Shown: positions 4,852 through 10,750, counted from the stretch's first letter. The stretch: 51,671 bases of DNA from an uncultured Candidatus Saccharibacteria bacterium (GCA_964385105.1 CAYLMU010000002.1:1-51671); one strand, 5' to 3'. Notes: generated by a model from the letters alone, not told the origin. Translations and numbers: made by a program.

Positions 4852-5643
4852 ATGGAACAACTGCCCAAAAACCATACAATTAAAATTTTTGTGTTGGTTT
4901 TGACTACTATAATTTTGTTTTTTTTGATTCACTTTCAATTTGTGGTCAATGCAATTTCAAGCGTAACGGTTATGTTTGATGTCACTGGTGACAATTTACA
5001 GTCGGGGGATATTGTAATTACTGTAGAGGGTAATTATTTAAAAAGCACGGAGGAATATTCAGGAAACTTATTAGGAGTAATAGTTGATGACCCTTCATTG
5101 GCGTTACGAGATACTACATTAGAAAATGGTACATATGTAACCACATCAGGTGAGGCTTTCGTAAACGTTTCTGCTGTAAATGGTGCAATTAATGCCGGAG
5201 ATTATATAACGACGTCAAATATTCCGGGAGTAGGCATGAAGTCTACCAAGTCAGGACAGGTGTTAGGTATAGCATTAGAAAGTTTTGAGCCGGCAGACAC
5301 AAATCAAATAGGACAAATATGGACATTTATTGATATTGGACCGGTTATTTCAGGCGACTCAATCGAACAGAATGCTTTAGAGCTTTTAAGATCGGGTATC
5401 AGTGCACCGTTTTTGACTCCTATGACTTCTTTAAGATTTCTCTTATCTTTTATAGTAATAATTGTATCTTTCTTTTTAGGTTTTGTATCATTTAGCAAAA
5501 TAACAGGCAATAGTATACAGGCCCTCGGCAGGAACCCTTTAGCTAGTAATGTCATAAAGTCATCAGTTGTCATGAATTTCTTTTTTACCATTATTGTAAT
5601 TATGGTCGGTGTAGGAGTAGCGTATTTAATTTTATCGGTATAA
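4852..5643 (+). CDS. Membrane protein: N-terminal TM/signal, soluble beta-rich domain, C-terminal two-TM hairpin resembling ATP synthase subunit c but without the ion-binding acid
   Basis: C-terminal LRFLLSFIVIIVSFFLGFVSFSKITGNSIQALGRNPLASNVIKSSVVMNFFFTIIVIMVGVGVAYLILSV. The loop ALGRNP resembles the subunit c A-x-x-R-[QN]-P loop; no D/E in the hairpin; first gene of the atp cluster. Confidence 0.7.
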   Translation: MEQLPKNHTIKIFVLVLTTIILFFLIHFQFVVNAISSVTVMFDVTGDNLQSGDIVITVEGNYLKSTEEYSGNLLGVIVDDPSLALRDTTLENGTYVTTSGEAFVNVSAVNGAINAGDYITTSNIPGVGMKSTKSGQVLGIALESFEPADTNQIGQIWTFIDIGPVISGDSIEQNALELLRSGISAPFLTPMTSLRFLLSFIVIIVSFFLGFVSFSKITGNSIQALGRNPLASNVIKSSVVMNFFFTIIVIMVGVGVAYLILSV

Positions 5644-5646
5644 AAA

Positions 5647-6354
5647 ATGACCAATTTTGATTTTAATTCAATATATATATTATTACTTAATATTTTCTTT
5701 GTCATACTATTTCTTATTTTAATTTTTTATATATTTAACACATACTTAGTACAACGTGAGGAGGAACGTAAACAAATACAAGATAAGGCATACAAGAAGG
5801 CTTTGAAAATTTTAGAAGATTCACAAGCACAAGCCTTAAGTACTATCAAAGCTTCTAATGTAAAAGCCCAAGAAATTATTAAAAATACACATGCGCTCAC
5901 AAGCGAAACTAAAGATGAGTTACACGCAAAAATAGAGGAAGAGACCAACAGACAAATAAAGGAAATTGAAAAAAGCACACATGATATGTATATGACATAC
6001 CATGCCGCCTTGCAAAAAGAGTCAGCAAGAAATTTGGGTACACTTCATAAAATGTTAAAAGATGTGGAGTCCGAAGTAGTTAATGAATTAAACGAATTCA
6101 AGAATATAGTAAAAGAAGAAACTATAAATTCAGAAAAAACAGTTCAAGAAAGGATTAATAAAGATTACGAAGATTTGCGTGCTGAGCTTGATAACTATAG
6201 AGATGAAAAATATCAAGAAATTGATAAAAACATCAACACTATTTTATTTAATGTAAGTAAATCAGTGCTTGGGGTTGCCATTGATCTTGAAATACATCAG
6301 CAACTTGTTCTTGAAAGTTTGGAAAAAGCTAAAAAGGAAGCTTTATTTGAATAA
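5647..6354 (+). CDS. F-type ATPase subunit b-like peripheral stalk (divergent)
   Basis: One N-terminal TM helix followed by a long E/K-rich coiled coil; directly upstream of delta/alpha. Confidence 0.65.
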   Translation: MTNFDFNSIYILLLNIFFVILFLILIFYIFNTYLVQREEERKQIQDKAYKKALKILEDSQAQALSTIKASNVKAQEIIKNTHALTSETKDELHAKIEEETNRQIKEIEKSTHDMYMTYHAALQKESARNLGTLHKMLKDVESEVVNELNEFKNIVKEETINSEKTVQERINKDYEDLRAELDNYRDEKYQEIDKNINTILFNVSKSVLGVAIDLEIHQQLVLESLEKAKKEALFE

Positions 6355-6818
6355 TGAAAATGAAGAGGCATCTAATAAGTACCAAAACAGAGCTTGAGAA
6401 TTTCGTGGCAAATTTGGAGAAGTTAACACTCGACATTAAAGGTATTCAATCTGAAAAACTCGAATCATATCTGGTAAAAAACTATGACAGTGAATTTATT
6501 GCTCGAGTCTCTGTAAGTTTACCAAACGGTTTAAATAAAGCAAATACTAACCTTGTGACTGATGTTGAAGAATTATTTAAGTCAACAAAAGATACCTTAG
6601 AAAATTCACTACAGGTTAAGCTAACTTTAGCATTTATCCCGGATGAAAAATTTATAAAAAGTTTGTATGAGTGGTTTGAGCAGAATACTGAGATAGAAGT
6701 GTTATTAGATATTGACACAGACAGGAGTATTATAGCCGGAGCAATCGTTAGCAGTGACGGAAAATATATGGATGATTCTGCAAGGAGTAAATTAAACAAA
6801 TATGGCAGATTTATTTAG
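6354..6818 (+). CDS. atpH: F-type ATPase subunit delta-like (divergent)
   Basis: C-terminal IDTDRSIIAGAIVSSDGKYMDDSARSKL matches the delta/OSCP C-terminal pattern; between b-like and alpha. Confidence 0.65.
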   Translation: MKMKRHLISTKTELENFVANLEKLTLDIKGIQSEKLESYLVKNYDSEFIARVSVSLPNGLNKANTNLVTDVEELFKSTKDTLENSLQVKLTLAFIPDEKFIKSLYEWFEQNTEIEVLLDIDTDRSIIAGAIVSSDGKYMDDSARSKLNKYGRFI

Positions 6819-8271: not shown

Positions 8272-9126
8272 ATGAAAGATGTAGAAAAAGAATTAAACAG
8301 TTTAATATCGTTTAAAAGCATAATTGAGGCATACGAAGAAATTGCTTCTATTAGAATGCGTAGAATAAAAGCATCTGTATTACATAATAGAGTCTACCTG
8401 GAAGGACTAAGAAGAGCATTTTTTCATATTAAATATTCATATGAGTCAGAGATAGAGAAACTAAGAAAAAAGAAGAAATCTGTACGCAATATAAGAACCA
8501 CAAACGGCAAAACTGTTTCAGTTTTATTAACAGCTAATACAGGATTGTACGGTGATATATTATTAAAAACATTCAATTTTTTTAAAAAACATATAGTAGA
8601 AGAAGAAACAGACATAGTAATTATAGGTAGAATTGGTATGAGATTTTATGAAGCTGCCGGATTTGGAAAAAACGTAAAATTTTATGATATTTCAGACAGC
8701 GGATTGGATAAAGAAGACATGAATCAATTATTGGAAGAACTCGTTCAATATGAGCGTGTCATAGTTTATCATGGCGAGTTTAAAGATATACTTGTACAAA
8801 ATCCTATTGCAGTATCTATATCCGGAGATTTAATAAGTGAAAGCACCGATATGGTTGAAGACAAAAGTGCCCGATATATATTTGAGCCGTCACTTGAAGA
8901 AATAATGTCATACTTTGAAGAAAAAATTATTGCAGCATTATTTGAACATACAATTTTTGAATCTAACTTAAGTAAATATGCCTCGAGAATGATCAGTTTG
9001 AATCAAGCGACGGTAAAAATTGAAAAAGAAATATCTAATATGTCACTTGAAACAAAGAGAGTTAAACATAGAGTTCAAAATTCTAAGCAGTTAAATATAT
9101 TATCTAGTTTGGTTGGGAGGTTTTAA
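8272..9126 (+). CDS. atpG: F1 ATPase subunit gamma
   Basis: [16 protein letters not shown]-terminal helix, [22 protein letters not shown]; between alpha and beta. Confidence 0.92.
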
Positions 9127-10493
9127 TGTCAGGAAGAATTACATCTATAAGAAATTTTATTGTTGAAGTTAAATTTACCGGTGATAATCTACCTAATGAA
9201 AAAGAACTATTAGTTGTAAAAAATAATGAAGAAGTAAAACTTCAAGTTTATAAAGCATTAAATCACAATACCTTTGGATGTATATGTTTAACAGATCCAA
9301 CCCAATTGTCAAGAAATGTTGAGGTGGTAAAAACAGGAAGGATGCTTGAGATTCCGGTTGGAGAAGAAGTTTTAGGTAGAGTTATAAATATATTTGGTGA
9401 TGTATTGGATGGTAAACACGATTTAAATAGTGAGAAAAAGGCTATTTATTCATATGATAATGAGTATGAAAATCTAAAATCCGATAAAGATTTGTTAATA
9501 ACAGGAATTAAAGCCATTGATTTATTTACACCTATGTCTCGTGGCGGTAAAGTTGGATTATTTGGCGGTGCTGGTGTAGGTAAAACAGTTTTATTAAATG
9601 AAATAATGCATAATGTCATTAATTATAATAAAGAAAAAACAGTTTCAGTATTCGCAGGAATAGGTGAAAGAATAAGAGAAGGGCATGAATTATATGAAAA
9701 TTTACAACGTACCGATATTATGAATAATGTTTCACTAATATATGGCTCTATGGCAGATAATCCTACGGTTAGGTTTCTGTCAGGATATTCTGCTATAACT
9801 GTTGCTGAATACTTTAGAGATGAAATGAATAAAGATGTCTTATTCTTTGTAGACAATGTTTTCAGAATGGCACAGGCAGGAAATGAGCTATCACTGTTTA
9901 TGAATGCTATTCCATCACAAGATGGTTACCAACCTACATTAACATCAGAAATATCAGTATTTCATGAAAGATTAATCTCAAATGAAAACGGTGCTATAAC
10001 TACTATAGAAGCAATTTATGTACCAGCTGATGACATATTGGATTATGCAGTTCAATCTGTATTTAATTTTCTTGACTCTTCATTAGTTTTATCACGAGAC
10101 GTTTATAGTCAAGGTTTGTTTCCTGCTGTTGATATTCTTGCATCTAACTCATCTATATTAAGTCCAGCCATTGTAGGAGATGAGCATTATGAAACTGCAC
10201 TTCAAGCAACAGCAATTTTAAAAAAGGCTGATGCTTTAGAAAGAATTGTGTCATTAGTAGGCGAATCTGAATTATCACAAGAAGACCGAACATTATATAA
10301 AAGAGCACGTAAAATAAGAAACTACATGACACAAAACTTTTTTACTGCAGAAAATCAAACAGGACAAAAAGGTGTATATGTAGACATAAACACAACTGTC
10401 TCAGATGTAAGTAAAATTATAAATGGGGAAATGGATGAAATAACTGAAGATAAGTTTTTATATATCTCAGATATAAATTCTATCTCTATGTAG
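9126..10493 (+). CDS. atpD: F1 ATPase subunit beta
   Basis: [12 protein letters not shown]-loop, GIGERIREG catalytic Glu, [14 protein letters not shown]. Confidence 0.95.
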
Positions 10494-10519
10494 CAATTTA
10501 TGAAATATATTATCATATT

Positions 10520-10750
10520 ATGAGAATTGTGATATTAAGTAAAGAAAAAGTATTATATGACGGTTATGTAAAAACTGTGACATCGCATAATGATGTAGGA
10601 ACATTTGATATACTAGAAAATCATGCCAATTTCATAACAATGCTCAAAGATGAAGTTTTGCTTGACAAAGGTACTCAAAAGGAGAAAAGATTTGACGTAA
10701 AAGAAGGTGTTTTATCAGTTGCAGACGATCGGGTAGAAATATTTCTGTGA
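10520..10750 (+). CDS. atpC: F1 ATPase subunit epsilon, N-terminal beta-sandwich only (76 aa)
   Basis: GTFDILENHANFITML resembles the epsilon GxxGILxxHxxxIT motif; last gene of cluster. Confidence 0.85.
   Translation: MRIVILSKEKVLYDGYVKTVTSHNDVGTFDILENHANFITMLKDEVLLDKGTQKEKRFDVKEGVLSVADDRVEIFL

Follow-up and report, generated by a model that had tools for sequence, protein, structure and literature searches.

Genes at the locus

The DNA analysed here, called the window in what follows, is a stretch of 51,671 nt (51.7 kb) assigned to an uncultured Candidatus Saccharibacteria bacterium (GCA_964385105.1, CAYLMU010000002.1:1-51671); the sequencing runs that contain it are DNA only and come from activated sludge. 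Positions 4852-10750 hold an F-type ATPase operon of seven open reading frames (ORFs) on the plus strand, spaced by -17 to +26 nt, which encode in this order a fusion protein with a hairpin like that of subunit c, then the subunits b, delta, alpha, gamma, beta and a short epsilon. The six ORFs from b to epsilon were named by Pfam and NCBIfam searches, and the cut-offs quoted below are the gathering or equivalog scores of the models. The coordinates are collected in Table 1.

On the left, 263 nt of intergenic DNA separate the operon from a divergent giant ORF. On the right, the convergent gene rplA lies 16 nt past the stop codon of epsilon, and beyond it are homologues of rplK and nusG and a SecE-sized ORF at the secE position. 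No space is left for atpB, the gene of subunit a, between the giant gene and rplA. An initial annotation of this DNA, made from the sequence alone, had described such a seven-gene cluster enclosed between a divergent and a convergent gene, and the ORF map together with the domain searches bears it out.

Table 1. Features of the ATPase operon and its divergent neighbour, with coordinates counted from the first letter of the window
Feature	Length or residues	Coordinates	Strand	Evidence
Divergent giant fibre-like membrane protein, runs off the window	at least 1529 aa	2..4588	-	Head, transmembrane helix, repeats
Divergent control region with two facing promoter-like sites		4655..4802	.	Consensus matches only
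c-like fusion: probable Sec signal peptide	aa 1-34	4852..4953	+	Lys in n-region, hydrophobic core, VNA
c-like fusion: beta-rich ectodomain	aa 35-170 (~135 aa)	4954..5361	+	AlphaFold2 pLDDT about 90 or higher; Foldseek; Pfam
c-like fusion: linker with short helix	aa 171-189	5362..5418	+	AlphaFold2 helix 175-184; pLDDT 58-74 just before
c-like fusion: c-subunit-like helical hairpin	aa 190-263	5419..5643	+	Profile, Foldseek, alignments
b-like peripheral-stalk subunit	235 aa	5647..6354	+	PF00430 E 2.7e-5 (best hit), NF004413 E 1.4e-5, both below cut-off
delta/OSCP-like subunit	154 aa	6354..6818	+	PF00213, 40.6 bits (cut-off 22.3)
F1 alpha	486 aa	6802..8262	+	PF00006, 233 bits; NF009884, 413 bits (cut-off 554)
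F1 gamma	284 aa	8272..9126	+	PF00231, 97 bits (cut-off 39.9)
F1 beta	455 aa	9126..10493	+	TIGR01039, 484.3 bits (cut-off 462.85)
Short epsilon, beta-sandwich only	76 aa	10520..10750	+	PF02823 over residues 1-75, 50 bits

A c-subunit hairpin without the ion-binding acid

The first gene of the operon (4852-5643) encodes a protein of 263 amino acids with the hairpin loop ...SIQALGRNPLAS... and the C-terminal end ...SIQALGRNPLASN.... Its AlphaFold2 (AF2) model, built with a 30-sequence alignment, has a mean predicted local distance difference test score (pLDDT) of 86. When the family profile was compared with all PDB sequences, the top seven matches were all c subunits of ATP synthases (E 1.2e-3 to 3.5e-2), and the alignments spanned both helices and the loop E-x-(I/L)-G-R-N/Q-P. 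Foldseek superposed the hairpin on the c subunits of Chloroflexus, Bacillus PS3, chloroplasts and mitochondria with template modelling scores (TM-scores, normalized to the target) of 0.75-0.87 and a root-mean-square deviation (rmsd) of 1.3-1.8 Å. Because of these profile matches and superpositions, the hairpin is a c-subunit homologue, and the c-ring-like fold whose absence would have counted against the initial annotation was found. The c-subunit family PF00137 did not match the fusion protein of the window; three of 30 relatives matched it weakly (best E 0.015), without reaching the gathering threshold.

The hairpin described in the initial annotation, which retains the R-N-P loop and has neither Asp nor Glu nor the glycine packing motif, was recovered in full. 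The GRNP loop is formed by residues 226-229 (nt 5527-5538), residues 186-263 contain zero Asp or Glu, and the GxGxGxG motif is not present. The ion-binding Glu of real c subunits aligns with Ile247 (nt 5590-5592), five residues after Asn242 (nt 5575-5577).

Regarding the N-terminal part, the region of the signal peptide is weakly conserved in the family alignment, but relatives end it in an AxA-like motif and the AF2 model shows a helix at residues 8-27; the peptide is probably cleaved after VNA. The GRNP loop is rich in Lys and Arg, and by the positive-inside rule it should therefore be cytoplasmic, where the loops of canonical c subunits meet gamma and epsilon, which would place the beta-rich domain outside the membrane.

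Conservation of the hairpin across the family

A collection of 5.8 billion proteins yielded 585 homologues of the fusion protein at E <= 1e-3, all with the same architecture. Those with a named source come from WWE3, Roizmanbacteria and the 'Patescibacteria group', and a few had been labelled 'subunit c' by JGI. The hairpin alone, compared with 1.84 billion cluster representatives, matched 365 clusters and was always C-terminal. The proteins in these clusters have mostly 250-300 amino acids; some have 400-590 and must therefore carry other ectodomains.

Conservation is highest in the loop region, through which the c subunits of canonical enzymes contact gamma and epsilon. GRNPL is invariant across the family alignment, and the Glu before the loop is near-invariant, being Gln in the protein of the window. 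In the alignment of 208 family members to the hairpin hidden Markov model (HMM), no Asp or Glu occurs in either membrane helix, and the column of the ion site is occupied by Phe, Ile, Ala, Leu or Val. An acid at this site was likewise found in 0 of 147 representatives of clusters at 50% identity (146 retrieved sequences and the query). The shared architecture of the 585 homologues, the invariant GRNPL and the acid-free ion-site column indicate that the acid-free hairpin is more than a chance feature. Two polar residues inside the membrane are also conserved, Asn at position +15 from the loop Arg (Asn242 in the window; 198 of 208) and Thr at position +19 (Thr246; 173 of 208).

The F1 head and the stalks

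The alpha subunit has the P-loop GDKKTGKS and the arginine-finger motif QRPAVN, and beta has the P-loop GGAGVGKT, the catalytic motif GERIRE and a DELSEED-like loop, ESELSQED. These motifs persist in the relatives: in beta, GG(A/S)GVGKT was found in 68 of 69 sequences and GER.RE in all 69, while alpha keeps its P-loop and, in 60 of 72 sequences, the arginine-finger motif RPA(I/V)N. Judged from these motifs, the F1 head is apparently catalytically competent.

The b-like subunit begins with a single N-terminal transmembrane (TM) helix and continues as a long helical stretch, and its length in relatives ranges from 176 to 376 amino acids (median 240). In delta, it is the C-terminal half alone that matches PF00213 (profile positions 79-168). 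The epsilon subunit of the window does not have the C-terminal helical domain that inhibits hydrolysis; the median length of epsilon in relatives is 89 amino acids, and the inhibitory helices are therefore generally missing across the family.

The class of alpha and beta was assigned from the scores of NCBIfam models and PDB sequences. The best NCBIfam model for beta is the ordinary atpD equivalog, whose cut-off it passes, whereas alpha, gamma, delta and epsilon fall below their NCBIfam cut-offs. Against PDB sequences, beta reached 342-382 bits with the canonical beta subunits of bacteria, chloroplasts and mitochondria and 304 with that of the Mycoplasma mobile G1-ATPase. Alpha scored 252-305 bits with canonical alpha subunits, a pattern that resembles that of beta but is more diverged. 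The alt_F1F0 models of the N-ATPases were not reached by alpha (357, cut-off 750.5), beta (442, cut-off 752) or epsilon (20.5, cut-off 100). The Mycoplasma models MSC_0618/0619 and MMOB1660/1670 were not reached either (420 against 570, 280 against 520, 369 against 600 and 389 against 850), the values of beta being those on MSC_0618 (420) and on the gliding model MMOB1670 (389). Models of the type III and flagellar export ATPases FliI/YscN gave 181-213 bits, with cut-offs of 380-605.

Since beta passes the atpD cut-off and among PDB sequences comes nearest to canonical F1 beta, the enzyme of the window is, as far as sequence scores can place it, a derived ordinary F-ATPase that belongs to neither the Mycoplasma nor the N-ATPase families. 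A kinship with the Mycoplasma type 2/3 or N-ATPase clusters, with which the initial annotation had proposed to compare alpha and beta, is not borne out by these scores, and the Mycoplasma enzymes are better regarded as analogues. The same annotation had named, as a joint finding that would overturn it, alpha and beta among ordinary synthases and a subunit a with an acidic subunit c encoded elsewhere. The NCBIfam and PDB scores supply the first half of that pair.

Subunit a and the recurrence of the gene order

Subunit a (PF00119) is missing in the operon and elsewhere in the window, as it is in the DNA that flanks 80 related loci. Within the window, the ORFs with at least two TM helices that were considered as a hidden a or c subunit proved to be a major facilitator superfamily (MFS) transporter, M50-type peptidase-like proteins (HExxH) and small unknown proteins, and the Pfam scan found neither ATP-synt_A nor ATP-synt_C among the unexplained multi-TM ORFs.

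For the wider comparison, one genome per species was scanned for the fusion protein and 80 loci were fetched with their flanks. The fusion is encoded in 281 species genomes, and the labels of the loci include WWE3, Levy-, Woese- and Amesbacteria and 'Microgenomates group'. The a-less order, for which the initial annotation had proposed a survey of genomes of the Candidate Phyla Radiation (CPR), recurs in nearly all of the 80 loci, which represent about 80 species: c-like gene, b, (delta), alpha, gamma, beta, epsilon. No ORF resembling subunit a (at least 150 amino acids and at least four TM helices) was found beside the c-like gene in the 10-kb flanks of these loci; the multi-TM ORFs in the flanks encode M50 peptidases, large proteins with 11-13 TM helices and similar proteins.

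The odd operon had been noticed before. In a complete WWE3 genome, Kantor et al. 2013 (PMC3812714) reported only non-homologous 'a, b, c' genes at the ATPase operon, with no recognisable a or c, and remarked on a likeness between the putative c and a membrane protein of the ATPase operons of OP11 and WWE3. From their position upstream of alpha, these three genes appear to be the c-like fusion, b and delta, without a, which we suggest as a possible answer to the puzzle that they posed. Apart from that remark, which has stood as an oddity since, the literature search found no paper on an a-less, carboxylate-less CPR ATPase.

Several loci depart from the common arrangement. A 1.7-kb insert between the c-like gene and b in Woesebacteria-type loci (L048, 5073-6797; also L058, L063, L065, L070, L075 and L081) was suspected of encoding subunit a, but it encodes a soluble protein of ~570 amino acids that looks like the phosphoglycerate mutase GpmI because of its N-terminal motif LVILDGWG. 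In two Roizmanbacteria loci (L003 and L004) the c-like gene, b, delta, alpha and gamma (at 11965-12957) are followed, where beta would be expected, by a subtilisin-like Peptidase_S8 gene, and these contigs contain no beta or epsilon.

Another observation concerns the names of the source genomes. Among the loci L009-L088, the operon of the WWE3/Microgenomates type occurs in many third-party metagenome-assembled genomes whose label reads 'uncultured Candidatus Saccharibacteria' or 'uncultured Gammaproteobacteria', and in many of them it is followed by the same rplA-rplK-nusG genes. These labels look unreliable, since the loci share the synteny of WWE3.

The ectodomain and the giant neighbour

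The ectodomain, predicted to face outward, is according to its model a module of the kind found in phage preneck appendages, tail fibres and decoration proteins. In the viral models of BFVD, Foldseek matched it to tail fibres, tail proteins and a 'preneck appendage protein barrel' (lowest E 8e-12; ~130 residues at an rmsd of 2.3-2.8 Å), and in the PDB to phage decoration or cement proteins and to phi29 gp12. Weak Pfam matches in the family point in the same direction (XM1_gp53 in 10 of 30 members, in addition to Peptidase_G2 and Phage_cement).

The divergent giant protein has a cytoplasmic MerR/HTH_17-like head (residues 18-65), a basic linker and one TM helix (at about residues 133-150), and its distal part consists of fibre-like repeats, GIGTTAP..LDVNGTIR (also written GIGTTAP.Y.LDVNGTIR). 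In 60 of the 75 loci with enough upstream sequence, the first gene divergent from the c-like gene encodes the same head, a remarkable synteny for proteins that share 35-45% identity. The giant gene is likely to be a partner or a regulator of the operon. The link could be physical, through an interaction between the crown of ectodomains and the fibre, or regulatory, since MerR-type heads classically face the operon that they control.

Moreover, the ectodomain HMM matched a module deep within the giant neighbours of five loci (L005, L046, L067, L019 and L036; E 1e-4 to 7e-28), and in L005 this module overlaps the Peptidase_G2/IMC match. Locus L005 (10001-20780) is also peculiar in its gene content: a lone c-like fusion, with no ATPase genes within 10 kb, stands beside two giant proteins, of which one has MerR and Peptidase_S74 domains and the other a Phage_int_SAM head, Peptidase_G2 and the ectodomain-like module.

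A proposed motor with output at the cell surface

On balance, although with considerable reserve, we favour the reading that the operon, a type proper to the WWE3/Microgenomates lineage of the ultra-small CPR bacteria, encodes an ion-uncoupled, ATP-hydrolysing F-type machine with its output at the cell surface. The motor probably burns ATP for surface work rather than making ATP, because the operon has no proton-channel gene, the rotor lacks the ion-binding acid and an outward fibre-like domain has been gained. The non-synthase, ATP-hydrolysing motor of the initial annotation is supported in part, by the acid-free c-like hairpin, the a-less order, the F1 motifs that are kept and the missing inhibitory domain of epsilon. 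Its link to surface structures finds support in the phage-fibre-type ectodomain, the module shared with some giants and the synteny of the giant gene, support that does not extend to the role in export or assembly that it had raised as a possibility.

The alpha3beta3 head, gamma with the short epsilon, and b with delta are retained, and the ion path would have been lost. The atpE slot is taken by the fusion of a secreted domain with a c hairpin, carboxylate-free in both helices and without an accompanying gene for subunit a. Once the signal peptides are cleaved, the mature hairpins could assemble into a c-type ring, and its conserved cytoplasmic loop, E-A-L-G-R-N-P, would bind the foot of gamma and epsilon. 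F1, unrestrained by a C-terminal domain of epsilon, would hydrolyse ATP and exert torque on an ion-blind ring, which should move no ions because there are neither carboxylates nor a subunit a. The work of this rotation would go to the external crown of fibre-type domains instead of an ion gradient, with the divergently encoded giant HTH-anchored (helix-turn-helix) fibre proteins as its likeliest target. Alternatively, the crown may be held by the wall or by the fibre, so that the head and the stator turn. That both stalks are conserved suggests that torque is really transmitted.

Stronger versions of this reading are less secure. A fibre-turning motor in the strict sense seems unlikely. We are equally doubtful that the F1 head, the carboxylate-free ring with its crown and the HTH-headed giant fibre form one trans-envelope machine which turns, tensions or retracts a fibre for host contact.

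Several observations weigh against the surface motor. Without subunit a, the b stator has no evident anchor in the membrane and no evident counterpart to push against, and the conserved Asn242 and Thr246 could be the sign of another polar function of the membrane part. The ectodomain module was detected in the giants of only five loci and not in several complete giants, so it is shared but not universal. Furthermore, a crude search of 63 divergent intergenic regions found no shared perfect dyad, only AT-rich chance repeats.

Split atp loci, with a and c encoded apart from the rest, exist in other bacteria such as Helicobacter. The enzyme could be an ordinary ion-coupled ATP synthase of this kind, with a and an acidic c encoded elsewhere in the genome and the fusion protein serving as an accessory, a minor ring or an assembly component. 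NCBIfam identifies beta as a genuine atpD, canonical F1 subunits are the proteins that alpha and beta resemble most, and the genes of the peripheral stalk are kept, all of which would suit a synthase. Nevertheless, in about 80 species the fusion occupies precisely the atpE slot and preserves the loop that contacts gamma and epsilon, no atp-like membrane ORF occurs in the window or in the 10-kb flanks of the 80 loci, and the closed WWE3 genome of Kantor et al. 2013 gave no recognisable a or c; we consider this explanation improbable. Carboxylate-free ion coupling is another way to keep the enzyme chemiosmotic, with Asn242 and Thr246 of helix 2 and the Ser/Gly face of helix 1 as the ion site and an unrecognised stator, for example the b helix or the TM helix of the giant. 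The conservation of both residues inside the membrane speaks for it, but no conserved membrane partner with an Arg is encoded nearby, and a bulky ectodomain on each protomer would be expected to clash with a stator interface of the a type. To our knowledge, every characterised ion-carrying rotor hairpin of the F, V and A types uses a carboxylate, and we regard this coupling as very unlikely.

The F1 head might also work without rotation, or with a loose one, anchored to the membrane by the fusion protein and b and energising the export of the giant fibres, their assembly or their processing in the manner of FliI/FliJ. The synteny with the giants, the kinship of the ectodomain with the autochaperone region of phage spikes (Peptidase_G2/IMC), the lack of an obvious membrane stator partner and the matches of alpha and beta to FliI-type models, weak as they are, would fit. 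What makes us rate it as unlikely is the conservation of complete central and peripheral stalks, which is sensible mainly for torque transmission, and of an invariant gamma/epsilon-binding loop in the hairpin; besides, the giants are anchored by a TM helix of their own, and the neighbouring genes include no export gate. Finally, the operon could be a decaying, functionless relic of an ATP synthase in the reduced genome of a symbiont. CPR genomes are indeed reduced, alpha, gamma, delta and epsilon score under their NCBIfam cut-offs, and one Roizmanbacteria locus has no beta in the operon. The frames, on the other hand, are intact and tightly packed, the catalytic residues are conserved and the invariant motifs persist over hundreds of species at 35-50% identity. 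Purifying selection on the operon is strongly suggested, and a relic is hardly credible.

The presence of an F-type ATPase is routinely read in metabolic reconstructions of CPR/Patescibacteria as the use or generation of an ion-motive force. If it is true that the enzyme of a major lineage (at least 281 species genomes) has no ion path, the metabolic models of CPR bacteria need revision. A carboxylate-free, a-less ring with both stalks would be a natural experiment on the work that a rotary F-motor can do outside chemiosmosis, and an F1 motor wired to surface proteins would have evolved a second time, separately from the mycoplasmas. Should the trans-envelope machine exist, the surface motors of prokaryotes would gain a new class, one derived from ATP synthase and conserved in both WWE3 and Microgenomates.

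Other features of the window

The control region between the giant gene and the operon has two promoter-like sites that match the consensus. That of the giant gene is on the minus strand (4684-4655, TTGACA-18-TATCAT), and that of the ATPase operon on the plus strand (4774-4802, TTGTCA-17-TATTAT); taken together, promoter-like sites are no more numerous here than expected from shuffled sequence. At least five copies of the hexamer ACATTT/AAATGT lie in the 263-nt region (window 4600-4850), and a tandem TAACATTTA is present twice at 4632-4650. Beside the start of the giant gene there is an imperfect dyad, CAAAGCTTTT-2-AATAGCTTTG, with 9 of 10 positions complementary (4607-4628). As candidates for a shared operator, the local repeats of the window do not convince.

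Farther along the window, a transfer-messenger RNA (tmRNA) gene of ~146 nt (22815-22960, plus strand) encodes the tag peptide AQAKTSKKLGQPKP. Its Rfam alignment spans the 374-position model from one end to the other and scores 60 bits, and it appears to be a minimal tmRNA without most of the pseudoknots. A block of higher G+C content (0.40-0.52, with 0.33-0.37 around it) starts at the tmRNA gene and extends over about 22000-31000. It contains short ORFs only, five of which were scanned and gave no Pfam matches. The idea that the G+C block at 23-31 kb is rRNA was rejected, as it has no Rfam match and no 16S motif. The block may represent either an island that entered at the tmRNA gene or a stretch poor in genes.

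Comparison with known systems

The canonical F1Fo operon (atpIBEFHAGDC) shares with the CPR operon the gene order from the atpE slot on, homologues of alpha, beta, gamma, delta, epsilon and b, the fold of the c hairpin with its R-x-P loop, and the Walker A, GER.RE and arginine-finger motifs. Both have a central stalk (gamma and epsilon) and a peripheral stalk (delta and b, the latter below threshold in the CPR system). The CPR operon differs in having no atpB or atpI, a ring subunit without the membrane carboxylate or GxGxGxG but with a signal peptide and an external domain of ~135 amino acids, an epsilon without C-terminal helices and a b subunit ~80 amino acids longer.

Among single subunits, the closest counterpart of the hairpin is AtpE (PF00137), especially the GRNP-loop protein of Chloroflexus aurantiacus (PDB 9itj). 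The two hairpins are of equal length, have a matching E-x-(I/L)-G-R-N-P and show 24-27% identity, with a TM-score up to 0.87. Unlike AtpE, the CPR protein has Ile, Leu, Val or Phe in place of the ion-site Glu, S-F-x-x-G-F-x-S-F in place of the Gly-rich helix 1, and a fused N-terminal signal peptide and ectodomain. The N-ATPases (atpDCQRBEFAG) are also divergent F-type operons, but they keep a and an ion-binding c, have AtpQ and AtpR and follow another gene order.

In the mycoplasmas, the type 3 'F1-like X0' ATPase is required for, and co-purifies with, the MIB-MIP antibody-cleavage system (PMC12994834; PMC3369863), and the type 2 G1-ATPase is that of gliding in M. mobile (PMC11864180). These systems consist of a seven-gene cluster with a 12-TM subunit and a small (19-kDa) cytoplasmic subunit, and have no b or delta (PMC12994834). 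Two of their proteins, MMCAP2_0577 and MMOB1650, combine a signal peptide, an ectodomain and two C-terminal TM helices, a subunit for which that work discusses no relationship to subunit c (PMC12994834). The fusion protein of the window (4852-5643) has the same architecture, a likeness of architecture only, with no sequence similarity detected. A shortened N-terminus of alpha is a further common trait, and on the favoured reading so would be the absence of a and c and an F1-type head put to a non-chemiosmotic use and tied to surface proteins. The CPR system departs from them in keeping b, delta and the canonical order and in having neither the 12-TM nor the 19-kDa subunit; none of the Mycoplasma sequence models reaches its cut-off, and no NCBIfam model matches the c-like fusion. 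The CPR system may also replace the canonical operon instead of accompanying it, unlike the Mycoplasma systems. The Mycoplasma F1-like X0 ATPases would therefore be the closest in concept, as analogues and not as kin, and the CPR operon is a variant of the F-type rotary ATPase previously published only as an unexplained oddity.

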